Notes under the pieces: generated by a model
What the model saw: the letters and a program-made list of their open reading frames with translations, nothing else
The model's database searches: none
What the model was told of the DNA's origin: nothing
Position numbers and translations under genes: made by a program
Part shown: positions 33,655-50,239 of the stretch, piece by piece
Layout: each line of letters starts with the position of its first letter
Numbering within the stretch: the first letter of the stretch is position 1
Assembly: GCA_052168235.1 (NCBI GenBank)
Contig: JBQLZK010000024.1
Location: 27,090-91,089 of the forward strand
DNA: 64,000 nucleotides
Source of the DNA: Thainema sp.
Lineage (GTDB): Bacteria; Cyanobacteriota; Cyanobacteriia; Phormidesmidales; Phormidesmidaceae
Reading direction: 5' to 3'

Positions 33655-34698
33655 ATGAAACACTATTTTGCTGCTGCTGGCATTGCCTGCATGGCTGCGA
33701 TCTCACCCCTCGAAGCCAGTGCCGCCACGTTTAATCAAATTTTTGTGTTTGGCGACAGCCTTGCCGATCCGGGCAATCTTTTTCAGGCATCAGGTGGGCT
33801 TGTGCCGCAAACACCTCCCTATGCTCAGCGGTTTTCTAACGGCCCCGTTTGGGTTGAATACCTGGCGGATTCTCTCAATCTCGACCCAATCCGAGCAACC
33901 GATTTTTTAAGCGGCTTACCGCTCAATGGGGAGGATGGCGTTAATTTTGCCGTTGGTGGAGCCAGTACCGGCACAAATTTAGCAAATTTTCCGCTGCCGC
34001 TTGGTGTGTTGTCTCAGGTTGAATCGTTTGAGCAACTGGTGAGCAGCAACGTGCTTCAGCCTGCTGATGATGCGCTCTATATCTATGTAGCAGGCGGCAA
34101 TGATATTGCGGCCAATCTTGCTGGTACACCTGGCTTTGCTGATATCAGCACTTTTCTGTCCAATACAACCGCAGCACTCCAAGACTTAATCAACATCGGA
34201 GCGCAAAATATTCTGGTGAGCAATGTGCCGGATCTGGGGGCAACGCCACGGTTTAACGGATTACCCAGTGCTGGCGTAATTACTAATATCGTCAACAGCT
34301 ATAACCAATCTTTGGCTGCAATTTTGGATTCATTATCGCTTAGTAATCCAACCGCGAATCTGATTGGGTTTGACCTGAATGGATTATTCGGAGATGCGAT
34401 CGCAAATCCAACTAATTACGGATTTATGAACGTTACTGACGCTTGCCTCAGTGGTTTCGACTCATTTCCACCCGACGATAGTTTTAACATTTGTGATGCT
34501 CCAGATTCTTATCTGTTCTGGGACAACTTCCATCCGTCCACTGCCGCCCATGCCATCGTCGCTGATGTTGCCTTGGCCCAACTGCATGAACCCGAAGCTG
34601 TGCCGGAACCCAGCGTACGCTGGAGTTTGGTTGCGTTGGGTACGGTTGTTGTGGGTGGAACGCTACATCGGCGATGCGCTCGACTAAAGTTGCGCTGA
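33655..34698 (+). CDS. SGNH/GDSL hydrolase with PEP-CTERM sorting tail
   Basis: Signal peptide; FGDSL, RFSNG, NFAVGGA, GGND, FWDNFHP; C-terminal VPEP + TM + basic residues. Confidence 0.93.
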   Translation: MKHYFAAAGIACMAAISPLEASAATFNQIFVFGDSLADPGNLFQASGGLVPQTPPYAQRFSNGPVWVEYLADSLNLDPIRATDFLSGLPLNGEDGVNFAVGGASTGTNLANFPLPLGVLSQVESFEQLVSSNVLQPADDALYIYVAGGNDIAANLAGTPGFADISTFLSNTTAALQDLINIGAQNILVSNVPDLGATPRFNGLPSAGVITNIVNSYNQSLAAILDSLSLSNPTANLIGFDLNGLFGDAIANPTNYGFMNVTDACLSGFDSFPPDDSFNICDAPDSYLFWDNFHPSTAAHAIVADVALAQLHEPEAVPEPSVRWSLVALGTVVVGGTLHRRCARLKLR

Positions 34699-34739
34699 GA
34701 ATTGAGCTAAACAGAGTGTTAACTTTATCGTTGGCTGCT

Positions 34740-34957
34740 TGAAAACCTAGTCTTGGGTTGCTAATCTGAGGGGGTCGGACGAACCTGGAAAACCGCATAA
34801 CTTCGTTGACCCCCTCAGATTGCTCTCCGTGCAAGGGTTTGAGCCTTGTTAGTAGAAGGGTTATTGATAGGTATTCTCAATTAACTGGCTCCAAGTTTGA
34901 CCCCCTCAGATTTGGGGCATTGAAAGCCTTGCCCAGTAAAGGCTCCAGATCGAGGGG
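34740..34957 (+). promoter_or_regulatory. CRISPR leader
   Basis: Abuts repeat 1; motif GACCCCCTCAGATT at 34808-34821 and 34899-34912 and inverted at 34763-34776. Confidence 0.8.
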
Positions 34958-35424
34958 GTTTCATTTCACTCACCCCGCAAGGGGACGGAAACAACCAGTC
35001 GCAAAGCATACGAGACATCTACGCTCTCGTTTCATTTCACTCACCCCGCAAGGGGACGGAAACTCGTCAGTGATACTACCCCATCTTAGGACAATATAAT
35101 AGTTTCATTTCACTCACCCCGCAAGGGGACGGAAACGCTCTTGGCAGGCAGCAGGCGCTTGTGGTTGTTCGTTGTTTCATTTCACTCACCCCGCAAGGGG
35201 AAGGAAACCTATGGAGGCTGATTAAACGGTGGGTCGTATCATCCGGTTTCATTTCACTCACCCCGCAAGGGGACGGAAACGTTAAAGCCACCTGCGATCC
35301 CGCTTCCGTTTACATAAGGTTTCATTTCACTCACCCCGCAAGGGGACGGAAACTCTCCCGAGACATCATATTTTGACTGAATTCTGATCGTTTCATTTCA
35401 CTCACCCCGCAAGGGGACGGAAAC
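34958..35424 (+). CRISPR. Orphan CRISPR array: 7 repeats (35 bp), 6 spacers (36-38 bp)
   Basis: Repeat GTTTCATTTCACTCACCCCGCAAGGGGACGGAAAC at 34958, 35029, 35102, 35174 (one C>A), 35246, 35319 and 35390; no cas genes in the window. Confidence 0.98.
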
Positions 35425-35431
35425 CTTAACC

Positions 35432-35607
35432 AAGGCAGAAGGATGAAGGCAGAAGGATGAACAACGGATCTGGTTGGGAGTCAGAGCTGTCAGCAAAAGG
35501 TTAAAAAAGCTTGGTTCGATATCAAGCCAACGCTCACCGAACTAAAATCATGATTCCTCAGCAGGCAACCTTTCTGCCTTCTGCCTTCTGCCTTTACCTC
35601 TGCCTTT
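35432..35607. repeat. Inverted STRR heptamer blocks (AGGCAGA/AGGATGA ... TCTGCCT)
   Basis: AAGGCAGAAGGATGAAGGCAGAAGGATGA at ~35432; TTCTGCCTTCTGCCTTCTGCCT at ~35572. Confidence 0.7.
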
Positions 35608-35657
35608 CCTCAAGGGACTGTACGATACAAACAGATCCCGTCATAGGAACCAACCCC

Positions 35658-36728
35658 ATGTCTGCGTTGAATGCTGCATCGAATCAGCCAACTTTCGACA
35701 CTCTGTTTAACACTATTGAATCGCTGGTCATGTGTCACTCGCCCAGCGGCGTGGAAACGGAGATTAATCAAACGCTGCTGGAGCGATTTCAGGCATTAAA
35801 CGTCCAGGTTTGGCAGGACGACGCAGACAATATCATTGCTCATTTACCCGGAAAAAACCGCGATCGCAGTTTAGCCATCACCGCCCACAAAGATGAAATT
35901 GGGGCCATCGTCAAAACTGTAGAAATCGAGGGGCGTGTCCAGGTACGTAAGCTGGGCGGCGCGTTTCCCTGGGTGTATGGCGAAGGAGTCGTAGACCTAC
36001 TAGGGGATGAGCAAACCCTCAGCGGCATTTTGTCCTTTGGGTCGCGCCATGTCTCCCACGAATCGCTACAGAAAGATTTGCAAGACACGGCACCCTTACG
36101 CTGGGAAGATGCCTGGGTAGAAACTAAGCAGTCCAACGAGGCGCTGGTTGCCGCCGGAATTCGCCCCGGCACGAGAGTGGTGGTTGGCAAACACCGCAAG
36201 CGCCCGTTTCGCATGGGAGACCATATCGCCAGCTACACACTCGATAACAAGGCATCGTTAGCAATCCTCCTCGCCCTCGCTGAGCAAATTGAACAGCCTG
36301 CGGTTGATTTGTATTTAGTTGCATCGGCCAAAGAAGAAGTTGGCGCAATCGGCGCACTCTATTTCACCCAGCGCCAGAAAATTGACGGCCTGATTGCGCT
36401 AGAAATTAGTCCCCTCGCCCCGGAATATCCCATCGAAGGCGGTGAATTTCCGGTGCTGCTCTCGCAGGATAGCTATGGCCTCTACGACGAAGGCTTGAAC
36501 CGTGAGATTCGGCGAGCGGCGGATCGGGTAAATATTCCACTTCAGCTCGCCGCGATCAGCGGCTTCGGTAGCGATGGTTCAATTGCTATGAAATTTGGAC
36601 ATGTATCTCGTGCCGCTTGTCTGGGCTTTCCGACACAGAATACCCACGGGTATGAAATTGCCCATTTGGGTGCGATCGCAAATTGCATTACCGTCCTTAA
36701 ACATTACTGCGAAACCAGCGGGCTATAG
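35658..36728 (+). CDS. M42-family metallopeptidase
   Basis: SPSGVE, TAHKDEIG, LDNK, EEVG..GA, GSD, THGYE motifs; start placed at MSALN. Confidence 0.9.
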   Translation: MSALNAASNQPTFDTLFNTIESLVMCHSPSGVETEINQTLLERFQALNVQVWQDDADNIIAHLPGKNRDRSLAITAHKDEIGAIVKTVEIEGRVQVRKLGGAFPWVYGEGVVDLLGDEQTLSGILSFGSRHVSHESLQKDLQDTAPLRWEDAWVETKQSNEALVAAGIRPGTRVVVGKHRKRPFRMGDHIASYTLDNKASLAILLALAEQIEQPAVDLYLVASAKEEVGAIGALYFTQRQKIDGLIALEISPLAPEYPIEGGEFPVLLSQDSYGLYDEGLNREIRRAADRVNIPLQLAAISGFGSDGSIAMKFGHVSRAACLGFPTQNTHGYEIAHLGAIANCITVLKHYCETSGL

Positions 36729-36812
36729 CGCTATACAATGATCATCAGAAGTTCGTGACAAAAAAGCGCGATCAATCGGCGTAATCAAGGTTTATCAGCC
36801 CCTTCCATTCCT

Positions 36813-37283
36813 ATGGCCAAAACTGTTGCAGACGTAATGAACCGTGATATCGTCACGGTCAAGCCAGAAACTCCCATTAATGACGCGATTCACTTGCTTT
36901 CCGAGCGCAAAATCAGCGGCTTGCCCGTTGTCAATGATGAAGGCAAACTGGTCGGTGTCCTGTCTGAGTCCGACTTGATGTGGCGCGAGAGCGGTGTCAC
37001 TCCGCCCGCTTACATCATGGTGCTGGATAGCGTTATTTATCTCGAAAATCCAGCCCGCTACGAGCGTGAACTGCACAAGGCGCTGGGTCAGACGGTTAAA
37101 GAAGTAATGACCGAGAAATCTATCACCACGATCCGCCCGGATCAGCCGTTAGCAAAAGCGGCTCAACTTTTGCTGCATCGCGATATTCGCCGCCTGCCCG
37201 TAGTCGATGAGCAAAATCATCTGGTGGGCATTCTCACCCGTGGCGATGTCATGCGCGTAATTGCCGCCGATGCCGAAGAATAG
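36813..37283 (+). CDS. Tandem CBS-domain protein
   Basis: ISGLPVV..LVGVLSESD and IRRLPVV..LVGILTRGD. Confidence 0.93.
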   Translation: MAKTVADVMNRDIVTVKPETPINDAIHLLSERKISGLPVVNDEGKLVGVLSESDLMWRESGVTPPAYIMVLDSVIYLENPARYERELHKALGQTVKEVMTEKSITTIRPDQPLAKAAQLLLHRDIRRLPVVDEQNHLVGILTRGDVMRVIAADAEE

Positions 37284-37410
37284 GCTGTAGTTTTGTTAAT
37301 CCACGGCAAAGTCATCAATCTCACCACTTTTTCCAAGCTCCACTATTAACGATCAACTATTCACATTCCTTTAATTTCCTACTTTTTATACATTAGTTTT
37401 TCGGATTGCC

Positions 37411-38076
37411 ATGAGCGTTACCCCCGATTCCGTCCAGCAAATGATCGCCTCTGAAGACTATGGCGATCGACTCAAAGGTATTAACCAACTGCGTGACCTA
37501 GAACCTGCCACTGCATTTGAGCTGATCAAGCAGGTTGTAGCCGATACGAATCCGCGTGTTCGCTATGCTGCCGTCAGTCAAGTGTCTAGCTTAGGTCATC
37601 AAGATCGACAGCAGGCGCTCGATATCTTGCGCGATCGCTTACTGCACGATTCCGAGGTCGATGTGCAAGCCGCCGCTGCCGATTCGTTGGGCGCATTGAA
37701 GCTCACAGAAGCCTACAGCGATCTAGAAGCCAGCTATCAAAACTCATCCGAATGGCTGCTCCAGTTCAGTATCATTGCCGCCTTAGGTGAACTGGGCGAC
37801 CCTCGTTCCTTCGATTTGCTCGAACAGGCGCTTTCCTCTGAAAATGAATTGGTACAAACGGCAGCAATCGGCTCACTAGGCGAACTGGGCGACGATCGAG
37901 CAGTCGCGCTGCTCGTCCCTTACTGCTCCAGCCCAGACTGGCAAATTCGCCATCGCCTCGTGCAAGCCCTTGGTCGTCTCAATAACCCAGAGGCTCAGTC
38001 AGCGCTGAAAAAACTAGCCGATGACGAAATGGAAATTGTTGCACAAGAAGCTCAAGCAACATTGCAACGCGGCTAA
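37411..38076 (+). CDS. nblB: Phycobilisome degradation HEAT-repeat protein NblB
   Basis: SEDYGDRL..INQLR, RVRYAAVSQ, DVQAAAADSLGAL, WLLQFSIIAALGELGD; PBS-lyase HEAT repeats. Confidence 0.85.
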   Translation: MSVTPDSVQQMIASEDYGDRLKGINQLRDLEPATAFELIKQVVADTNPRVRYAAVSQVSSLGHQDRQQALDILRDRLLHDSEVDVQAAAADSLGALKLTEAYSDLEASYQNSSEWLLQFSIIAALGELGDPRSFDLLEQALSSENELVQTAAIGSLGELGDDRAVALLVPYCSSPDWQIRHRLVQALGRLNNPEAQSALKKLADDEMEIVAQEAQATLQRG

Positions 38077-38100
38077 TTAAGCCTTTACTAGCTTTTTTCT

Positions 38101-38134
38101 AAAAGGAAGTAACTCAAAGTTACTTCCTTTTTTT
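38101..38134 (+). terminator. nblB terminator
   Basis: AAAAGGAAGTAAC-TCAAA-GTTACTTCCTTTTTTT. Confidence 0.85.
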
Positions 38135-38516
38135 AGCTACGGATTCAAGTTTTATTTTGAAGTATGAAATTAGCTCAGTATTTGAAACTCCTTATCTCTT
38201 GTTGTACTAAAGCCTAGAAGGATGATTTGTTATCGCATCGTGGCAGCAAAGTCATTACTTTGAACTCGTACTTTAAATGCATAAAAAAGTGAAATTCACG
38301 AGTATTTCTAATATTTATTCGGATAAATTTTATTCTTAAACATAATATTAGCTCAATGTTACTGACTGCTTTTGTGAGGGAATGATAAAGCAGTGAGACG
38401 CATCGTGATAGCGCATGTCCTGATTTAGAGCCAATTTTTAGAGAAATCAGTATTCCTGATCGCCAAAAATTGGCTACGAGCATTGATCTACTATTTATTA
38501 AGGGAAGATCTCCAAC

Positions 38517-39263
38517 ATGAAGAAAATTCTGCAGCTCATTGATCAAAAGAATGAAGAGTTTGCGAAACTGCCGTTCTTCCAGTTTATGGAAGATGAGAGC
38601 ATTGATCCTCGACAAAAACTGGCCTTCTCACCCGTCATCACCCCTCTAGCACTAGAGTTTAGTAAGCTTTGTACACAGGTTTTTCGTCAGGAAGCAGCAG
38701 GCAACCGCGTGCAGGAAATCGTCAATAAGCACACCCAAGAGGAGCATTTCCATTGGCAGTGGCTCCTCGAAGACATGGGTAAGATGGGTACCGATTACAC
38801 CATGCGCTTCAGCGATGTTGTAAGGTTTTTGTGGAGCGATCATACGAAAGTTTCTCGCTCTATGTATTCTTTATTTGAGCGCTATACTCGCGATGCTGAT
38901 CCCGTAATGCGGCTAATTGCGATCGAAGTTTCTGAAGTGACGGCGAACGTATTTTTTCACTCAACCAAATCAGCAGCGCTGCAACTGCAAGAAATGACTG
39001 GGCAAGAATTCCGCTACTACGGAATGTGCCACAATCATATCGAAAATACTCATACTCTACGCACGCCAGAGGTTACAGCTTATATTCAAAGCATTGAGCT
39101 GACCGACGACGTTCGCCAGCAGGCTCTTGAATTGATTGATAAGTCGTTTGACTACTTTGCAGATTTAGTAGACGAGTTTTTGGTATTTGCTCAAGCTCAT
39201 CCATACCAAGAACCTCCATCTGTAAACATCAAGAAAGATTATCTACTCAGCTCTGTCGCTTAA
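38517..39263 (+). CDS. Heme-oxygenase-like diiron oxidase (HDO), AetD-like
   Basis: All-helical 248 aa with E76-x-x-H79, E140 and H172-x3-E176-x2-H179; overall pattern resembles AetD as I recall it. Confidence 0.8.
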   Translation: MKKILQLIDQKNEEFAKLPFFQFMEDESIDPRQKLAFSPVITPLALEFSKLCTQVFRQEAAGNRVQEIVNKHTQEEHFHWQWLLEDMGKMGTDYTMRFSDVVRFLWSDHTKVSRSMYSLFERYTRDADPVMRLIAIEVSEVTANVFFHSTKSAALQLQEMTGQEFRYYGMCHNHIENTHTLRTPEVTAYIQSIELTDDVRQQALELIDKSFDYFADLVDEFLVFAQAHPYQEPPSVNIKKDYLLSSVA

Positions 39264-39320
39264 TTCAATAAGCAATCGATACGGTATTTCAAAAGTATCA
39301 TTTAACTGTGATACTTAATG

Positions 39321-39364
39321 AGTGTACTGCTCAGCCTCCAAAAGATAGCTGAGCAGTACACTTT
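39321..39364 (+). terminator. Terminator after the HDO gene
   Basis: AGTGTACTGCTCAGC..GCTGAGCAGTACACT-TT, 15-bp stem. Confidence 0.8.
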
Positions 39365-39642
39365 GCCTTATTTATTTATAGGGAAATGTGCGATCGCAAT
39401 ATCGTCATCAGAATATAGCAGCTCAAAAAATAAATCTAGAAACCAAGCTTTACTAAATTCAGGTATCTAAAAACGACTCGCACATTTTATTGATTTATTT
39501 AACAATTGCGAAATAATCAAGAATTCTTGTTTTTCATTGACCAATTAGAGTTGACTGAAGCACAAATACAGTATTTATAAGGTTGTTCAAATTACAGAAT
39601 ACTGGGAATACTGGAATGTGATTTATCTTTGCTCGACCAGTA

Positions 39643-42600
39643 GTGCTATCACCCATGCAAGCAACTCTTAGTGTTCCCGGATATCGGCTTGATCACCTTT
39701 TACATTCCAGCTCTAGAACTCTTGTTTATCGAGGAGTAAAAGAGCATGATCAACAACCAGTAGTGGTAAAACTACTGAAAAATCCTTATCCCAGTGCGGT
39801 TGAATTGATGCAGTTTCGCAATCAATACACAATCGCCAAAGCGCTTGATTCACCAGGCGTTGTCCAATTTTATAGTCTCAGCACAGAGCAATCTCAATTT
39901 GCGCTGATTATGGAAGACTTTGGGGGGATTTCTCTCAAAGAATATATCAATTGTCAGGCTGCAAATTTAGAACCAGCAGCTAAGCTGATGGAATTTTTGC
40001 AAGTTGCGATCGCAGTTGCTGACATCCTGCACGATATCTATCGGCACCGGATTATTCATAAAGATATTAAACCAAGCAATATTTTAATTAATCCCGAAAC
40101 GAAGCAGGTTAAGCTGATTGACTTCAGCATTGCTTCGCTGCTGCCGCGCGAAACTCAAGCTCTCACCAGTCCCAATGTATTGGAAGGAACGTTAGCCTAT
40201 CTGTCGCCGGAGCAAACGGGGCGGATGAATCGCGGCATTGACTACCGCACCGATTTTTATTCCCTGGGCGTTACCTTCTATGAGCTGCTGACGGGACAAC
40301 TGCCGTTTCAGGTCGAGGATGCGATGGAGCTGATCCATTGCCATATTGCCAAGCAGCCTGTGCCGCCGTGTGAGGTCGAGGGGAGCAGGGGAGCAAGGGG
40401 GCAAGGGGGTAAGGGAGCAAGAGGGATGCGCGCGCAAGACGGCTCCCCATCTCCCCATCTCCCCATCTCCTCATCTCCCATTCCCACAGTTCTGTCAGAC
40501 ATCGTCATGAAGCTGATGGCGAAAAATGCCGAGGATCGCTATCAGAGTGCGCTGGGGCTGAAGTATGACCTGGAGCAGTGCTTATCCCAACTGAAAGAAA
40601 CAGGTCGGATCGAACCTTTCCAGTTAGCGGAGCGGGATGTGTGCGATCGCTTTTCGATTCCGGAAAAGCTGTATGGGCGCGAGCAGGAAGTTGACACCTT
40701 ACTGGCAGCGTTTGATCGGGTGAAGGAAGGAGCCACCGAACTGATGCTAGTGGCGGGTTTCTCCGGCATTGGCAAAACCGCTGTCGTAAATGAGGTGCAT
40801 AAGCCGATTGTCCGGCAGCGGGGCTATTTCATTCAGGGTAAGTTCGACCAGCTGCAGCGCAATATTCCGTTTTCGGCTTTTGTGCAGGCGTTTCGCGATT
40901 TGATGCGGCAACTGCTGACCGAAAGCGAGGCTCAGCTAGAGCGCTGGAAGCTGAAAATTCTGCGATCGCTGGGTGAAAACGCTCAGGTCATCATTGATGT
41001 CATTCCCGAACTGGAGCAAATCATCGGTGCTCAACCTGCTGCGCCAGAACTGTCCGGCGTGGCGGCTCAAACTCGCTTCAATCTGCTCTGCCAGAAGTTT
41101 ACGCAGGTGTTCACCACCCAGGAGCACCCGCTGGTCATCTTCCTGGACGATTTACAGTGGGCGGATTTGGCCTCTCTGAAATTGATGCAGACGCTCTGCC
41201 GGGATGTAGACATCCAGTATCTGCTGCTGATTGGAGCTTACCGCGATAATGAAGTCTCTTCGGCCCATCCCCTGATGCTGGCCGTGGAGGAACTGCGGCA
41301 AGCAGAAGTCGTCGTAAATGCGATCGCACTTGCTTCCCTCAGCCAGTCTCATTTGAATCATCTGGTTGCCGATACCCTACTCTACTCGGCAGACGAAGCC
41401 CTGCCGTTAACTCAACTGGTTTATCAGAAAACCCAAGGCAATCCCTTCTTCAGCAGTCAGTTTCTCAAATCGCTCTATCAGGACAAACTGCTGAGTTTTG
41501 ATGTTGGCCACGGGAAATGGCAGTGTGACCTAGTTGGTATCCAAACGGCAGCTTTGACGGATGACATTGTCCAATTTGTGGCTTGTCAGCTGCAAAAGTT
41601 GCCCGCAACCACTCAAGATGTGCTCAAGCTAGCGGCTTGCATTGGCAACACCTTTGACCTGGCAACGCTCTCTATCGTTTACGGCCAGTCGTTCGCGGAA
41701 ACGGCAACGGAGCTATGGTCAGCCCTGGAAGAAGGGTTAATTGTGCCCACAAATGATGCCTATAAAGCCTTTCAAGATGAGGTTGAACATTCGCTCAACG
41801 GCAAATCAAGATCCGGTTCAGCGCTATCCCATCTGTCTCCTGACCAATTGCCGACCTACAAATTTCTCCATGACCGCATTCAGCAGGCCGCTTATTCGCT
41901 GATCCCGGCGGATCAGAAGCAGGTGACGCACCTCCAAATCGGTCAGCGATTGCTGTGCAACACCTCTGCCGAAAATTGGGACGAGAAGCTGTTTGAAATT
42001 GTCAACTCGCTCAATATTGGAGCAGCGCTGATTACCGAGCAAAGCCAGCGTGAGGATCTGGCTCGGTTAAATTTGCAAGCAGGGGAAAAGGCCAAAGCTG
42101 CGACTGCATTTGGTACCGCGCTGGAATACTGCCAAGCGGGAATTGCCCTGCTGCCGACCGATGGTTGGCACAGTCAGTATGACCTGACACTAGCGCTGCA
42201 CGAGATTGCTGCCGAGGCGGCCTATCTGTGTGGTGAGTTTGAGGCGATGGAGCAGTTGACCACCGCCGTCATGAATCAGGCTACAGCGCTGCTGGATCAG
42301 GTGAATGTGTATGACATTCGGGTGCAAGCTTATACCGCGCAAAATGATGTACTGGCTGCGATCGCAACTGCGCGTCAGGCCATGAGCCTATTTGGGGTCA
42401 ACTTTCCAGACAATCCCACCCCAGCCGACATTCAACAGGCGCTCCAGGAAACGACTGAACTGGCAAATAGCAAGTCCCTAGACGAACTGCTCAACTTACC
42501 GACCATGACCGACGCTGAAAAGCTGGCCGTCATGCGAATTGCCGTTAGCGTGGCTCCGGCAGTTTATATCGCGATGCCCAATCTGTTCGCCCTGCTGACG

Positions 42601-45303
42601 CTTTCTCAGGTCAAAGCATCGGTTGAATTTGGCAACACGCCCTTCTCAGCCTTCTTCTATGCCTGCTACGGCATTCCGCTCAGCAGTGCGCTGGGCAATA
42701 TTGCCGCCGCCGACAAGTTTGGCAAAGTCGCTCTCGGCCTGAATGAGATCTTCAACATCAGCGCCCTGCAACCCACGACGCTTTATGTAGTGGGCGCGTT
42801 CTTGGTTCACCAAACCTCCCATCTGCAAGACTCTCTGCAACTGATGCTGGATGGCTATCAGCTTGCTCTCGAAACGGGCAACCTCTACTACGTCGGCTTC
42901 AACACTAAGGATATCTGTCAGTACTCCTACTTCATGGGGCAGGAACTCACCAGCCTGGAGCAGGACATGCAGGCATATGGCCAGGTGCTGACCAATTTTA
43001 AGCAAATTACCACGCTCAACTACTGCCGGATTTATCATCAAGCCGTCTTGAACCTGTTGGGGCAGAGTGAAAATCCCTCTGCCATGCGGGGTAGTGTCCT
43101 GGATGAAGATCAGTTTCTACCACAGTTGCAAACAGCGAATGAGTTCACTGGGCTGCACTATTTCCATCTGCATAAGCTCATCCTTTGCTACTTATTTGGC
43201 GACCTGCCACGGGCGCTCAAAACCGCCGCTCAATCCAGAGAATACTTAGCCGCTGGCACAGGTTACGCCACAGAACCCACGTTTTATTTCTACGACTCGC
43301 TGACTGCGTTGGCGGTCTATCCCACTGCTTCTTCCGCTGAGCAAACTGAACTGCTGAAGCGCGTCGCTGACAATCAGGCGCACCTAAAGCGACTCGCTGA
43401 CCATGCGCCGATGAATTATCGTCATAAGTTTGATTTGGTTGCCGCAGAGCGCTATCGCGTCTTGAATCAAAATACAGAAGCGCTGGAAGCCTACGATTGT
43501 GCGATCGCAGGTGCAAGAGAACATGGCTTTACTCAAGATGAAGCTCTAGCCAATGAACTAGCAGCTCGTTTCTACCTAAACTGGGGTAAAGAGAAGATAG
43601 CCCAGGTCTATCTAGCTGATGCCTACTATGCCTATGTGCGATGGGGCGCAACGGCCAAAGTGCAGGATCTGGAAGCTCGCTATCCGAATCTGCTCACCCC
43701 CATGCTGCATCGGGAGGAGGGATTTACAACCCGCCGATCGCTGAAGGCCACCACGACAGGCAGCGGCACCAGCGGCAGCACCAGCGTTTCGGACATGCTG
43801 GATCTGGCCACGGTGATGAAATCTTCGCAAGCGCTTTCGGGTGAAATTCAGCTCGACACGCTGCTATCAACGCTGATGCAGGTGCTAATTGAAAATGCGG
43901 GTGCCGAAACCTGTGCGCTCCTGCTGCGCCAAGACGGTGAGTGGATTGTCTCGGCCCAGGGCATGAGCCATCAGCCCACCGTATTTCCCAACCACCCCCT
44001 CGCCGATAGCCAATCCCTGGCTCAGTCTGTGGTCAATTACGTGATTCGCACGTCCGAAACGCTGGTTTTAGACAGCGCCTGCACTGAAACGACCTTTGCC
44101 AACGATGCTTACATTTTGGCCCATCGGCCCAAGAGCATCCTCTGCACCCCTGTCCGCAATCGGGGTCAGGTGATTGGCATTCTGTATCTGGAAAATAAGC
44201 TGACCAATGGGGCGTTTACCCATAATCGGCTGGAGGTGCTGCGTCTGCTGACGGCGCAAGCGGCCATTTCGCTGCAAAATGCCCTGCTCTACAACAAGCT
44301 GGCGGTGGCGAAGGAGCAACTGGAGGAATATAGCCATACGCTGGAGCAAAAAGTTGAACAGCGTACCCAGGAGTTGAACGATAAGAATCAGTGTCTGTCG
44401 GACGCGCTGGAGCAGCTCCAGCAAACTCAAACCCAGTTGATTCAGACGGAAAAGATGTCCTCGCTGGGCCAAATGGTGGCCGGAATTGCCCATGAAATCA
44501 ACAATCCCATCAACTTTATCTACGGCAATCTCACCCATGCCGATGGCTATTGCAGCGATTTGCTGGGACTTGTGGACTGCTATCAGCAGCACTATCCTGA
44601 TCCGGTAGCTGCGATCGCAGATGAGATGGCGGCGATTGAGTTTGATTTTCTAAAAGACGATTTGCACAAGCTGCTGCAGTCGATGAAGGTGGGAGCCGAC
44701 CGGATTCGCCAAATTGTCCTGTCGCTGCGTAACTTCTCGCGGCTAGATGAGGCGGAAATGAAACCCGTCGATATCCATGAAGGGATTGACAGCACACTGC
44801 TGATTCTGCATCACCGGATCAAAGGCAACGATAATCACACCGCCATTCAAATCATTAAAGAATACGGCTCACTGCCTAAAATTACCTGCTTTGCCAGTCA
44901 GCTCAACCAGGTGTTTATGAATATTCTGAGTAATGCCTTGGATGCGCTAGAACCCAAAAGTCGCAAGCTGCCGGGAGTCAAGCATAAAGCTGAAGCCGTA
45001 GCGTCGCTGCCAACTGCCTTCCCCTTTGCATCTGATTGCACGGCCCCCACGATTCGCATCCGGACAGCCATGAAAGATGACACGGTTCACATCTGGATCG
45101 CAGACAACGGCTCTGGCATTCCCAAAAAGGCTCAGTCCCACCTATTTGATCCCTTTTTCACAACCAAGGAAATCGGCAAAGGCACCGGACTGGGACTATC
45201 GATCAGCTACTCCATCGTGGTAGACAAGCACGGCGGCCAGCTCAGCGTAGTTTCAGAACTGGGACAGGGAACAGAGTTTGCGATCGCAATTCCAAGGCAG
45301 TAG
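39643..45303 (+). CDS. Ser/Thr kinase - AAA ATPase - GAF - histidine kinase hybrid (HstK-type)
   Basis: HKDIKPSN, DFS, YLSPEQTGR; P-loop GFSGIGKT; FLDDLQWAD; GAF; AHEINNP; DNGSG; GTGLGL. Confidence 0.95.
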   Translation: MLSPMQATLSVPGYRLDHLLHSSSRTLVYRGVKEHDQQPVVVKLLKNPYPSAVELMQFRNQYTIAKALDSPGVVQFYSLSTEQSQFALIMEDFGGISLKEYINCQAANLEPAAKLMEFLQVAIAVADILHDIYRHRIIHKDIKPSNILINPETKQVKLIDFSIASLLPRETQALTSPNVLEGTLAYLSPEQTGRMNRGIDYRTDFYSLGVTFYELLTGQLPFQVEDAMELIHCHIAKQPVPPCEVEGSRGARGQGGKGARGMRAQDGSPSPHLPISSSPIPTVLSDIVMKLMAKNAEDRYQSALGLKYDLEQCLSQLKETGRIEPFQLAERDVCDRFSIPEKLYGREQEVDTLLAAFDRVKEGATELMLVAGFSGIGKTAVVNEVHKPIVRQRGYFIQGKFDQLQRNIPFSAFVQAFRDLMRQLLTESEAQLERWKLKILRSLGENAQVIIDVIPELEQIIGAQPAAPELSGVAAQTRFNLLCQKFTQVFTTQEHPLVIFLDDLQWADLASLKLMQTLCRDVDIQYLLLIGAYRDNEVSSAHPLMLAVEELRQAEVVVNAIALASLSQSHLNHLVADTLLYSADEALPLTQLVYQKTQGNPFFSSQFLKSLYQDKLLSFDVGHGKWQCDLVGIQTAALTDDIVQFVACQLQKLPATTQDVLKLAACIGNTFDLATLSIVYGQSFAETATELWSALEEGLIVPTNDAYKAFQDEVEHSLNGKSRSGSALSHLSPDQLPTYKFLHDRIQQAAYSLIPADQKQVTHLQIGQRLLCNTSAENWDEKLFEIVNSLNIGAALITEQSQREDLARLNLQAGEKAKAATAFGTALEYCQAGIALLPTDGWHSQYDLTLALHEIAAEAAYLCGEFEAMEQLTTAVMNQATALLDQVNVYDIRVQAYTAQNDVLAAIATARQAMSLFGVNFPDNPTPADIQQALQETTELANSKSLDELLNLPTMTDAEKLAVMRIAVSVAPAVYIAMPNLFALLTLSQVKASVEFGNTPFSAFFYACYGIPLSSALGNIAAADKFGKVALGLNEIFNISALQPTTLYVVGAFLVHQTSHLQDSLQLMLDGYQLALETGNLYYVGFNTKDICQYSYFMGQELTSLEQDMQAYGQVLTNFKQITTLNYCRIYHQAVLNLLGQSENPSAMRGSVLDEDQFLPQLQTANEFTGLHYFHLHKLILCYLFGDLPRALKTAAQSREYLAAGTGYATEPTFYFYDSLTALAVYPTASSAEQTELLKRVADNQAHLKRLADHAPMNYRHKFDLVAAERYRVLNQNTEALEAYDCAIAGAREHGFTQDEALANELAARFYLNWGKEKIAQVYLADAYYAYVRWGATAKVQDLEARYPNLLTPMLHREEGFTTRRSLKATTTGSGTSGSTSVSDMLDLATVMKSSQALSGEIQLDTLLSTLMQVLIENAGAETCALLLRQDGEWIVSAQGMSHQPTVFPNHPLADSQSLAQSVVNYVIRTSETLVLDSACTETTFANDAYILAHRPKSILCTPVRNRGQVIGILYLENKLTNGAFTHNRLEVLRLLTAQAAISLQNALLYNKLAVAKEQLEEYSHTLEQKVEQRTQELNDKNQCLSDALEQLQQTQTQLIQTEKMSSLGQMVAGIAHEINNPINFIYGNLTHADGYCSDLLGLVDCYQQHYPDPVAAIADEMAAIEFDFLKDDLHKLLQSMKVGADRIRQIVLSLRNFSRLDEAEMKPVDIHEGIDSTLLILHHRIKGNDNHTAIQIIKEYGSLPKITCFASQLNQVFMNILSNALDALEPKSRKLPGVKHKAEAVASLPTAFPFASDCTAPTIRIRTAMKDDTVHIWIADNGSGIPKKAQSHLFDPFFTTKEIGKGTGLGLSISYSIVVDKHGGQLSVVSELGQGTEFAIAIPRQ
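40379..40480. repeat. In-frame STRR insertion within the kinase gene
   Basis: GGGAGCAG/GGGAGCAA/GGGGGCAA run followed by (CTCCCCAT)x3. Confidence 0.75.
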
Positions 45304-45530
45304 GAGCAAGGAGGCAGGAGAGAAAGGGGGCGAAAGGAAACCTGGTGTGTAGCTGCTGCAACTTGAGAAACGATACTGCATCAGTTCTCCAAAATTGCAG
45401 CAATGAAAAGCTCTCCGGCTCCTTCACTCCCTCGCCCTTCTTCATAGCAAATGTCTTTGATTCCCTAACTCTCTGAAAAAGCTCTCCTGCTCCCTTTCTC
45501 CCCTACTCCCCTGCTCCTTTTCCCACTCTA
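45301..45530. repeat. Inverted STRR-like blocks between convergent genes
   Basis: GGAGCAAGGAGGCAGGAGAG... and ...CTCCTGCTCCCTTTCTCCCCTACTCCCCTGCTCC. Confidence 0.55.
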
Positions 45531-45531
45531 C

Positions 45532-46965
45532 CTACCCGTCAAACCGTACCCGCATCACTTTAGGAATTTGCGATTGCAGTCGTCCCGGCGTGTAGCGACC
45601 GCAGCCAAGCTGGATATCGCCGTAGCGCACATGCACATAGCAGGGCGTTTCTTCGGCAAGCTGCACGGTGTCCGGATCGACGAGTACGGTTTCGCCCATG
45701 ATGAACTGCTGGGCAATGGTCGCTGTGGGTAGGTTCACAATTTGACGCTGCGCCCAGTGGCCAAATCGCTGTAGGCCATAACTACTGGGCTTCCACGTAC
45801 CGGACGACAGCCGAAAAATGGGCAGTCCAATGCCCTGAATTGCCAAGGGTTTACCTGTTTCTGTCGGCGGTAGCGGCACCTGTTGCTCAGCTAGCCAGCA
45901 GGTGGATTTGCCTTTTTGCCAGAGGGTGAACGGTTCAAAATGTGCGGGATCGATATAAAAGCGATCGCAAAATTCCAGTAGCACCGATCGATCCACTAAC
46001 GGTTCAACCAAATCCTGGGCAGAGGCACTCGGTTCAGGCAGAACGGCATCCGATAGTTGCGCCTCTGTGCGCCGAATGCGGGCGGCAAAAAATCCACCTG
46101 TATTGTTGAAGTGCGGAAAATAGCGCTGAGCATGGGCCACGTCAGCACGATAGGTTTTTCCTTGCCACTCGGTTAACCCCGGCATGGCGGTTAGCCCAGG
46201 AATCGACACGGATTCAATCACACCCCGATCGCCCAGTACCTTATCGAGTACCGCTTCATTTTCTTCCGGTGCAAACGTGCAGGTGCTATAGACCACCACG
46301 CCGCCCGGTTTCACCAGTTGCAGCGCCCGATCCAAAATCTGCCGCTGCACGGACGAAACCCATTCGCTGTAGCCCGGTCGCCAGTTGATATTTTGAAACC
46401 CCTTGCGCACCGTGCCTTCACCAGAACACGGGACATCGATTAGGATGCGATCGCAACTATGAGGCGCAAGGGGAATACTGCGACCGTCATAGTTCGTGAC
46501 GACAACATTAGTTAAGCCCAAGCGGCCAACCGTGCTAGATAAGCTAGACAGTCGGCCAATATTTTTTTCGTTAGCGATGACAGTTCCGGTGCTAGCTAGC
46601 CGCATGGCAATTTGGGCCGTTTTCCCACCGGGTGCGGCACAGAGATCCAGCACGCACTCACCGGGCTGTGGGTCGAGCAGTTCAACTGCCGTCAGCGCAA
46701 TTTCTTCCTGGACATAGTACCAGCCCGCCACAAACGGAATTGTACTGCCTGGTTTCGACCAATTATGGCTACGAAAGGCATCAGAATACCAGGACAGGGG
46801 TTCTAGCTCAACGCCAGATGACACAAGCTGAACGATTAGGTTGGCCGAAGTGGTTTTAAGTGGATTGCTCCACATGCAGACGGGTAACGGCTGGACAATA
46901 CACTGAGTAAAGGCTTCCGGATCGGGCAGCAGCGACTGATAACGGTCAAGAATGGATTCAGACAT
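45532..46965 (-). CDS. RsmB/NOP (RsmF/YebU-like) RNA m5C methyltransferase
   Basis: YYVQE, VLDLCAAPGGKT, ILIDVPCSGEG, YSTCTFAPEENE, GFF motifs. Confidence 0.92.
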   Translation of the reverse strand: MSESILDRYQSLLPDPEAFTQCIVQPLPVCMWSNPLKTTSANLIVQLVSSGVELEPLSWYSDAFRSHNWSKPGSTIPFVAGWYYVQEEIALTAVELLDPQPGECVLDLCAAPGGKTAQIAMRLASTGTVIANEKNIGRLSSLSSTVGRLGLTNVVVTNYDGRSIPLAPHSCDRILIDVPCSGEGTVRKGFQNINWRPGYSEWVSSVQRQILDRALQLVKPGGVVVYSTCTFAPEENEAVLDKVLGDRGVIESVSIPGLTAMPGLTEWQGKTYRADVAHAQRYFPHFNNTGGFFAARIRRTEAQLSDAVLPEPSASAQDLVEPLVDRSVLLEFCDRFYIDPAHFEPFTLWQKGKSTCWLAEQQVPLPPTETGKPLAIQGIGLPIFRLSSGTWKPSSYGLQRFGHWAQRQIVNLPTATIAQQFIMGETVLVDPDTVQLAEETPCYVHVRYGDIQLGCGRYTPGRLQSQIPKVMRVRFDG

Positions 46966-48430: not shown

Positions 48431-48661
48431 CGCTAGTGCCAGTTGAGGGAAAAAACTGCTGAGAAACAGCCGCAGTCCAAGCAAATCTGCGGACAAATTC
48501 TCACTATTTGAGTCGCTAGATATACCCAAATGCATAGCTGATTCTTCACGTAATTATCCTGATCGCCTAAAGATTGGATGAAAGGGGGAACAGGATGATG
48601 CCTAGAAGTGTCGTCTTATATTAGACCGATGGGTAATAAGAGATTCAGAGGGGGAATTGTG

Positions 48662-50239
48662 ATGAAGCTAGGGCGCACTGCCACTCGTTTGACTTGCGCT
48701 GCCCTGCTAAGTTTTAGCATGGTGTTGCCAACCAATCCAGCTTCAGCCAGTACCCCTCTAACACGGGCTGTTATTGAAGCCTTACGAAATCAGGTGCGGT
48801 TGTTACAGGAGAACCAATCAACCCGTCCAGCCAATGTATCTGACACGATTACACCTGGTGATGGGGTGGCCACAGGGCAATTCTCGCTGGCTGAACTCCG
48901 CTTCAACGATGGTTCTTTAGCACGCGTGGGCGAACAAGTCGTTTTCTGGTTTACGCCTCAAACCCGCTCCTTTCGTTTATCAAACGGAACGCTGCTGATG
49001 CTAATTCCGCCGGGACGAGGCGGTACGCGCATTCACACACCTAACGTCACGACCGGCATCCGGGGCTCAGCTCTATTTGTTCGCCATGATGCCGAGACTA
49101 ATACAACCTTGGTCGGTGCTTTGACCGATAGCGGCATTGAAGTGACCAATGCTGACAATACAGAACGCCTTGAACTCCAGGCCGGTCAGATGGCGGTTGT
49201 GGTAGAGAATACGATTCAGCAGCTGTATGAGTTTGATCTAGATACGTTCTATCAAACCAGTCCTTTAGTGGAAGGTTTAAAACTCAACCAGGCCGTCACG
49301 GACGATGAAATGGAAGCCTCTTCTGAGGAAGAGCGTGCGATCGCAGCCGTCCGAGCCGAAACCGTCATCGCACTACAGACACAGCAGTTTAATCAAGATA
49401 CAGCAGTTGCCACACAAGTTTTCGAGCTGGATGCTCAGCGGACAACAACGTCAGACACTCCAGATACTGCTGATAGCGTTGGTGTAGATACGATTGAAGC
49501 CCCTGTTTCAACCGATCTAAATCAGATCACCACAGATGTAACCGTTCCTCTAGAAGGAGTTGTGAATGGAGTGGTGGATTCTGTTGCAGATGATCTAGTT
49601 GACGCGGTAGTTGATGATGCCATCAATGATGTCGGTAACGCTGTCGATGGTGTCGGCAATGTTGCAGATGATGTCGGAAATATCCCAGTTGTTGGCAATA
49701 GCCCTATCGATGACATTGTGGAGGGCGTTGTCGATGTTACTGAGGGTGCAATAGACAACACTGTCGATACTGTCGATGATTTGGTGGAGGGTCCAGATAT
49801 AGTGCCGGATGCCGATCTAATGGACTTGATCAATGAGGGCGTTTTCCCAGGCCAAGGGAACGGCGTTGAAGATGGATTTCCAGGCCAAGGGAATGGGGTG
49901 CTAGATGGATTTCCGGGTCGAGGCAACGGTGTGCAAAACGGCAACAGTGGCCAAGGCAATAACGGCGTTGGTAACGGAAATGGCATGGGGAACGACAATC
50001 CGGGCGGCAATAATGGCGTCGGCAACAGCGTCGGAAATGGTAATCAAGGTGGCAATAACGGCGTTGACAACGGCGTCGGAAATGGTATTGGAAATGGCAA
50101 CCAAGGTGGCAACGGTATCGGAAATGGCAACAACAGCCTGGGCAATGGTCTCGTAAACGATTTAGGCAATGGCCTACGTAATGGTTTAGGTAACGGTTTA
50201 GGTAACGGTCTAAGCAATGGTAATGGGCGCAATAACTGA
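48662..50239 (+). CDS. Secreted FecR-domain protein with D/V-rich and Gly/Asn-rich tail
   Basis: Signal peptide; GD.V.TG..S.AELRFNDGSLARVG, TP....GIRGS; tail of FPGQGNGV and GNG repeats. Confidence 0.85.
   Translation: MKLGRTATRLTCAALLSFSMVLPTNPASASTPLTRAVIEALRNQVRLLQENQSTRPANVSDTITPGDGVATGQFSLAELRFNDGSLARVGEQVVFWFTPQTRSFRLSNGTLLMLIPPGRGGTRIHTPNVTTGIRGSALFVRHDAETNTTLVGALTDSGIEVTNADNTERLELQAGQMAVVVENTIQQLYEFDLDTFYQTSPLVEGLKLNQAVTDDEMEASSEEERAIAAVRAETVIALQTQQFNQDTAVATQVFELDAQRTTTSDTPDTADSVGVDTIEAPVSTDLNQITTDVTVPLEGVVNGVVDSVADDLVDAVVDDAINDVGNAVDGVGNVADDVGNIPVVGNSPIDDIVEGVVDVTEGAIDNTVDTVDDLVEGPDIVPDADLMDLINEGVFPGQGNGVEDGFPGQGNGVLDGFPGRGNGVQNGNSGQGNNGVGNGNGMGNDNPGGNNGVGNSVGNGNQGGNNGVDNGVGNGIGNGNQGGNGIGNGNNSLGNGLVNDLGNGLRNGLGNGLGNGLSNGNGRNN

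Follow-up and report, generated by a model that had tools for sequence, protein, structure and literature searches.

An AetD/SktA-family diiron oxidase gene and its conserved pairing with a giant dual kinase in the cyanobacterium Thainema sp.

The small gene analysed here, which encodes a predicted heme-oxygenase-like diiron oxidase, belongs, together with the kinase gene beside it, to a conserved two-gene unit. In the initial annotation, made from a 64,000-nucleotide stretch of DNA (hereafter the window), it had been called stand-alone; this proved wrong, as the kinase is a conserved partner that is present in the fetched flanks of 29 of the 33 distinct loci of the enzyme's clade. A survey of homologue neighbourhoods, proposed at the time as a check, contradicts the picture of a lone gene as well: when 401 genomes were sampled evenly, 51 family genes had an intact ligand set, and within 7 kb of 32 of these lay the ATPase or TPR part of such a kinase. 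The enzyme itself belongs to a family known for unusual C–C cleavage chemistry, in which it represents a branch that is new and uncharacterised. We lean towards the view that enzyme and kinase constitute a minimal synthase-plus-receptor module, in which a small diffusible molecule would be made and then sensed.

Table 1. Features of the enzyme–kinase locus, in window coordinates, and loci of related gene sets
Feature	Position or loci	Strand	Details
AetD/SktA-family heme-oxygenase-like diiron oxidase, Glu76/Cys52/Leu44 clade	38517..39263	+	248 aa
Hairpin of 14 bp with U-tail, terminator-like, end of the upstream nblB unit	38101..38131		z -3.9 (folded stretch)
Probable 5' leader, including the RBS-like sequence	38383..38516	+	RNA contig starts
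RBS-like AAGGGAAG ahead of the enzyme ORF	38500..38507		
Perfect inverted repeat of 15 bp between enzyme and kinase genes	39321..39362		z -7.5; U-tract weak
Partner dual kinase, cbSTKIII type	39643..45303	+	1886 aa; Pfam, motifs
Clade-specific TPR-like region, candidate ligand-sensing part of the kinase	42163..43422	+	kinase residues 841-1260
Pocket of the window enzyme			I41, L44, F48, S139, T142, F146, Y167, F214, F221
Clade loci with molybdoenzyme	L002-L004, L006, L008, L012, L015, L016, L019, L022, L023, L026, L032, L033		
Further loci with short repeat ORF	L037, L076, L079, L083, L085, L087, L089, L090, L092, L093, L097, L105, L108, L115, L131		
Pseudo-enzyme loci	L117-L122, L124, L127-L130, L132-L136, L138, L139, L142		

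The enzyme and its place in the AetD/SktA family

The open reading frame carries E76, H79, E140, H172, E176 and H179, the residues picked out in the initial annotation, and none of the six varies across the 26 sequences aligned. The heme-oxygenase-like diiron oxidase (HDO) fold proposed from this layout was borne out: the predicted model (pLDDT 89) contains the seven-helix bundle of the superfamily, with the set of three histidines and three carboxylates on the core helices, and VIA superimposes 224 of its residues on AetD with Z 28.1 and an rmsd of 1.7 Å, whereas other HDO matches score far lower (BesC 14.8, CADD 14.2 and UndA 13.8). Going by this superposition, the ligands probably cluster in three dimensions. 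The resemblance to AetD suggested in the initial annotation likewise holds: AetD is the sole significant solved relative found by phmmer (E 9e-46) and matches the model with a Foldseek TM-score of 0.85; the two sequences are 33–35% identical. The iron ligands of AetD as given in the available text of two papers, namely D76, H79, E140, H172, E176 and H179 (PMC10654658; PMC11611611), align in register with those of the window enzyme, in which position 76 is Glu and not the Asp of AetD and SktA. Pfam returned only a sub-threshold HisKA match for the enzyme, and NCBIfam none.

According to the accessible parts of the respective reports, AetD is the nitrile synthase of aetokthonotoxin biosynthesis, a toxin pathway (PMC10654658), and SktA is the skatole synthase of the sktABC cluster of Nostoc punctiforme NIES-2108, which acts alone on plain L-Trp or on 5-bromo-Trp to give skatole, cyanide and bicarbonate (PMC11869266). 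The conversion of an amino acid by a single gene product, as envisaged in the initial annotation, is thus already known for the family, as far as the available text on SktA goes, while the accompanying notion of an orphan gene did not stand. The substrate contacts described for AetD, again in the text available, are I41, F44, F48, M139, A142, I146, Y167, S214 and F221 (PMC10654658; PMC11611611; PMC13108848). Comparison of the two pockets gave a divided answer: I41, F48, Y167 and F221 are kept, whereas M139, A142, S214, F44 and I146 are S139, T142, F214, L44 and F146 in the window enzyme, the last two changes amounting to a swapped ring clamp. Positions 139, 142 and 214 are the three that set AetD apart from SktA (PMC13108848), and here the window enzyme falls on the side of SktA (T139/T142/F214), its serine being a conservative exchange. 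T142 and F214 are common throughout the family and hence weakly diagnostic; they speak more against AetD-type specificity than for SktA chemistry, and since M139, A142 and S214 of AetD are replaced by S, T and F, 7-bromo substrates are probably disfavoured. Judged from sequence, the pocket appears to fit an unsubstituted aromatic amino acid, and it fixes neither substrate nor reaction. A crude sum of side-chain volumes over the nine positions (1492 cubic Å for the window enzyme, 1437 for AetD and 1414 for SktA) also fits an unsubstituted substrate and does not discriminate between Trp and Phe or Tyr. Among the literature matches listed, none describes the AetD-Tyr/Phe structures 8ZVG/8ZVH.

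With SktA the window enzyme shares family, length, ligand spacing, F48, Y167, T142, F214 and, at position 139, a residue with a hydroxyl group, but it is 34% identical to the stand-in used for SktA (L096, which by eye is about 89% identical to the printed SktA sequence) and has E76 for D76, C52 for N52, L44 for F44 and F146 for M146. A tree of the cyanobacterial members places it apart from the SktA branch, which has D76, F44 and N52, in a branch characterised by E76, L44 and C52. The window enzyme is an orthologue of neither AetD nor SktA, and no member of its clade has been characterised. The gene sets of the two characterised enzymes are missing too: the halogenases, P450 and tryptophanase of the aet cluster are absent around the window enzyme, and the sktB halogenase and sktC monooxygenase are found neither at the window locus nor in any of the 33 clade loci. 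The early observation that no halogenase or other pathway gene surrounds the enzyme gene is upheld more widely, as none of the 33 clade loci has a halogenase or flavin monooxygenase nearby and two halogenase queries gave no match at E<1e-8 in this genome. At E≤0.001 the family as a whole counts 692 representatives. Some are fused to Trp prenyltransferase or to flavin monooxygenase, suggesting that Trp is a common substrate in the family.

The enzyme gene is present in a single copy in its own genome and is under purifying selection, with 69 synonymous and 4 non-synonymous codon differences from its counterpart at locus L001. The window is cyanobacterial, with an nblB equivalog just upstream of the enzyme gene; further neighbours are the genes for the kinase, a CBS protein and an M42 peptidase. 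Strong hairpins on both sides of the gene, initially described as terminators, and the AT-rich DNA were confirmed: GC content is 33% and 32% in the flanks, compared with 45% in the gene and 50% in the window, and the hairpin towards the kinase, given its weak U-tract, may be a terminator or an RNA-stabilising element. A scan for consensus promoters and terminators, the output of which was at chance level, listed neither hairpin. Rfam gave no match in 34500–46000, an NtcA-like GTA-N8-TAC site is absent from both flanks of the enzyme gene, and an alignment of 22 promoter regions shows no shared upstream motif beyond the RBS. In two of the three runs of a single biofilm study (not in run X1), RNA contigs from a relative about 96% alike cover the enzyme gene; those of two runs start at 38383 and 38385, a weak hint only of where the leader begins. 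Separate contigs cover the start of the kinase gene, and none in the three runs spans both genes. As these contigs show neither expression level nor strand, they hint weakly at expression of the enzyme gene in a close relative. Elsewhere in the window, seven repeats spaced 71–73 nt form a CRISPR-like array (34952–35424), which has no Rfam match at gathering score and no cas gene among the ORFs of 28000–50000, and at 48608–50239 lies an ORF of 543 aa whose N-terminus is signal-like and whose tail is of low complexity and rich in Gly and Asn.

Conservation of the enzyme–kinase pair

The clade was counted as distinct loci of at least 54% identity, drawn from the window, a further set of loci and the phylum sample; where a gene had been fetched twice, the second copy was discarded (six cases). 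L099, which has a kinase and lies just under the cut-off, was left out. The 29 loci with a kinase include one in which only the kinase start is seen at a contig end and one broken locus. Among the four without, one is cut by a contig end, two are second copies whose genomes hold another linked copy, and G307 is a true exception, its best kinase being only 49% identical. The nearest upstream gene falls into 21 clusters across the clade loci, or about 18 once truncated cases are merged by eye, and throughout these outer contexts the pair is kept, in tandem and head-to-head orientation.

In the sample of 401 genomes, 48 carry a family gene, and each of the 71 family matches outside the window's own genome was retrieved together with as much as 7 kb of sequence per side. 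Apart from the 32 ligand-intact genes with a kinase, 19 of the 51 have none within this distance, and neither does any of the 20 family genes lacking intact ligands, 19 of which represent one syntenic locus. The chance expectation is 1.9%, from random windows of this genome, and is estimated at 1.3–6.1% in five others. Conversely, a search of the 401 genomes with the TPR region of the kinase (E≤1e-200, three candidates scored per genome) reached seven other genomes, and in 7/7 a family gene lay no more than 7 kb from the match, four times one of the window clade and three times a sister gene. The adjacency of putative synthase and sensor is accordingly conserved and reciprocal, as in a synthase–receptor pair, and the linkage turns up in three orientations and in four separate groups of kinases; the loci and genomes are related, so that the counts are not independent and serve as description.

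The match between enzyme and kinase is not one-to-one. At L099 the pocket is nearly that of the window enzyme, but the kinase belongs to another branch (46% identity in the TPR region), one that also serves halogenase-bearing and terpene gene sets; together with the intervening hairpin, this locus speaks against a strict lock-and-key relationship. A dual kinase follows the enzyme gene in four of five SktA-like loci as well, where it is convergent, whereas the window kinase is in tandem and of a different branch. In the sktABC-like clusters L080, L094, L096 and L098, the next gene is a convergent cbSTKIII kinase. The word 'kinase' is absent from the main text of the SktA paper (PMC11869266).

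Accessory genes vary between loci. A sulfite-oxidase-family molybdoenzyme occurs in 14 of the 33 clade loci and an alpha/beta hydrolase in two; neither stands beside the window enzyme gene, and the best match to the molybdoenzyme gene in this genome is 26%. In Nostoc-type loci the molybdoenzyme gene is tail-to-tail with the enzyme gene and usually lies between enzyme and kinase; a sulfite link to cyanide detoxification would be speculation. Assignment of the hydrolase as a kynurenine formamidase was considered and set aside, the match being weak (E 2e-14), below two esterase/lipase matches and level with a third.

Other loci of the family show arrangements of their own. At all 16 loci with a CmlS-like flavin halogenase, a short ORF with two to nine tandem Trp-containing motifs of ten to twelve residues (HTWTENLDI-A/S type) sits between halogenase and AetD-family gene, for example at L075:6638-6892 on the minus strand; it resembles a multi-core peptide precursor and is perhaps a scaffold for Trp halogenation. 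Nineteen loci of genus g5 hold, between ndk and proB and with no kinase nearby, an AetD-family pseudo-enzyme in which H79 is replaced by Y, H172 mostly by Y or D, and position 76 is mostly K or E; a role as a non-catalytic amino-acid-binding regulator is possible. L114, L123, P0073, P0084 and P0045 pair the family gene with an aromatic prenyltransferase or aminotransferase, or are fusions, in this set to Trp dimethylallyltransferase or flavin monooxygenase. L104, L110 and L113, and likewise L034, L036, L038 and L041, mostly lack an adjacent dual kinase and have large sensor-type genes instead, which were a PAS-GAF histidine kinase in L104 and a dCache hybrid histidine kinase in L036, the loci scanned.

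The partner kinase and its TPR-like region

The kinase gene starts 380 bp downstream of the enzyme gene, and its product comprises, in order, a Ser/Thr kinase, a STAND-type P-loop ATPase, a TPR-like helical region, a GAF domain and a His kinase, with the motifs HKDIKP at 139, DFS at 160 and HEINNP at 1617 and, in the ATPase, GFSGIGKT and LDDLQW. Its Pfam domains and motifs agree with the definition of cbSTKIII kinases in the available text of PMC2176072, i.e. Ser/Thr kinase, GAF and His kinase with KD and DFS motifs, and like HstK and Pkn41 it joins an N-terminal KD-type Ser/Thr kinase carrying DFS to GAF and a C-terminal His kinase. As far as that text extends, this literature names nitrogen- and iron-dependent expression and neither a ligand nor a partner enzyme (PMC2176072). 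Such kinases are numerous, with 11 in this genome and 4–24 matches in each of five others.

Identity in the TPR-like region is 58–77% among 15 orthologues against 29–41% among 25 paralogues; expressed as excess of orthologue over paralogue identity, the difference is 0.02–0.14 in the kinase and ATPase parts, 0.22–0.49 at residues 841–1260 and 0.26–0.40 in parts of the stretch from GAF to His kinase. Clade partners are 59–64% identical to the window kinase in the TPR region, compared with 33–46% for ten paralogues of the same genome. Residues 735–1375 are predicted to fold as an all-helical repeat (pLDDT 92.9), the best match of which by target TM-score is MalT domain III (0.67, rmsd 5.9 Å, E 4e-4), one among many generic helical-repeat matches. 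In MalT, a STAND protein switched by maltotriose, domain III is the inducer-binding part.

The clade partner kinases form one branch (26 rows, SH-aLRT 100), and in a kinase tree of 88 rows the enzyme-adjacent kinases fall in four groups; thinned to 56 rows, the tree requires 4 label changes, against 17.6 +/- 1.8 in 500 shuffles. The kinase of L177 is not beside a family gene, yet it sits inside a branch of enzyme-adjacent kinases; this dual kinase (L177:4853-13246) is convergent with a P450 and a terpene synthase gene, and its TPR region nests among those of AetD-family-adjacent kinases. Agger 2008 is reportedly the original paper on a comparable gene cluster. In the available text of PMC4558948, such a cyanobacterial cluster consists of a sesquiterpene synthase, a P450 plus a 'hybrid two-component protein'; it resembles the window locus in that a small-molecule synthase set adjoins a dual kinase, and differs in its terpene chemistry, convergent layout and kinase branch. 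By contrast, 46 proteins selected from the neighbourhoods of background kinases (the other 17 in G355 and two in G323) were scanned. Most belong to transport, regulation or housekeeping, and a single one is NRPS-like, which argues that pairing with a synthase is not general to such kinases.

A possible make-and-detect module and its alternatives

Modelled on AetD and SktA, the first step would be substrate-triggered: very probably the amino acid binds Fe1 via its amine and carboxylate, aided by Y167, and O2 is activated at the diiron site. We slightly favour unmodified L-Trp as the substrate; Phe or Tyr would be a possible, if rather unlikely, alternative. The amino acid may then undergo SktA-type C-alpha/C-beta cleavage to skatole, cyanide and CO2, a step that we put forward only tentatively. 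Skatole plus cyanide is the single most likely outcome and nevertheless a doubtful one; new chemistry is roughly as probable, since this enzyme has Glu in place of Asp76 and Cys in place of Asn52. The hydrophobic product would probably diffuse within or between cells and bind the TPR-like region, which could switch the STAND ATPase in the way maltotriose does for MalT and thereby activate both the Ser/Thr and the His kinase, whose outputs would reach a response regulator encoded at another locus. LuxI and LuxR form an adjacent synthase–receptor pair, and the present arrangement follows the same logic, although family scans report no sequence relationship. The helical-repeat sensor after a STAND ATPase is reminiscent of MalT, but the output here consists of two kinase domains and not of DNA binding as in LuxR and MalT. 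The initial guess of a small signalling molecule as the product gains support.

Regulators often adjoin the genes that they control, and the enzyme could instead make a deterrent or allelopathic metabolite (e.g. skatole plus cyanide), with the kinase governing its production on an unrelated cue and not serving as product receptor. The release of cyanide by SktA, the toxin pathway served by AetD and, more speculatively, a part of the molybdoenzyme in by-product handling would agree with this; however, the partner-specific portion of the kinase is a TPR-like putative sensor that varies between gene sets, the same kinase branch recurs beside a terpene synthase, and the unit has neither a conserved response-regulator gene nor a conserved DNA-binding gene, and we consider such an arrangement unlikely. 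Alternatively, the enzyme might stand on the input side, destroying or converting the molecule sensed by the kinase, or touching the kinase as an Fe-, O2- or amino-acid-sensing subunit. No clade locus has tailoring enzymes, the ligand-less pseudo-enzymes retained in one genus indicate that the fold can be non-catalytic, and the accessory molybdoenzyme and formamidase-like hydrolase could be catabolic. Yet the sister sets with halogenases, prenyltransferase and monooxygenases, like the Trp-prenyltransferase fusions, fit biosynthesis, and the pseudo-enzymes have no kinase neighbour. An input role is in our judgement quite improbable.

That the enzyme stands alone after all, its kinase neighbour being incidental and co-inherited by chance, is strongly disfavoured and has in our estimate a very small probability. 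The hairpins on each side of the enzyme gene and the abundance of such kinases in cyanobacteria are compatible with it, and the clade trees follow host groups, so that vertical inheritance contributes to the linkage; against it stand the persistence of the pair in about 18 outer contexts, the outcome of the reciprocal search and the recurrence across kinase groups and orientations.

In the open-access literature searched, the pairing of such an enzyme with a kinase was not found, apart from the terpene-cluster precedent as contained in the available text of PMC4558948, and no ligand is named for any giant dual kinase. The locus contributes a minimal, tailoring-free enzyme–kinase form with a tandem partner. 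More speculatively, and with considerable doubt, it may be the smallest form of an undescribed mode of cyanobacterial signalling, in which a volatile that a single diiron enzyme derives from an ordinary amino acid, by chemistry new to the family (Glu76/Cys52), is read by a swappable TPR sensor on a STAND-type dual kinase, and in which the halogenases, prenyltransferases, monooxygenases or terpene synthases of sister loci would create strain-specific dialects.

Giant dual kinases number up to two dozen per filamentous cyanobacterium, and a soluble 248-aa enzyme that has no tailoring partner and adjoins its kinase offers the simplest route to a kinase ligand. If the proposal is true, HstK-type kinases would gain a first ligand, cyanobacteria that form mats and crusts would have a circuit resembling quorum sensing, and the sktABC and sesquiterpene clusters would be recast as signalling modules rather than orphan pathways.
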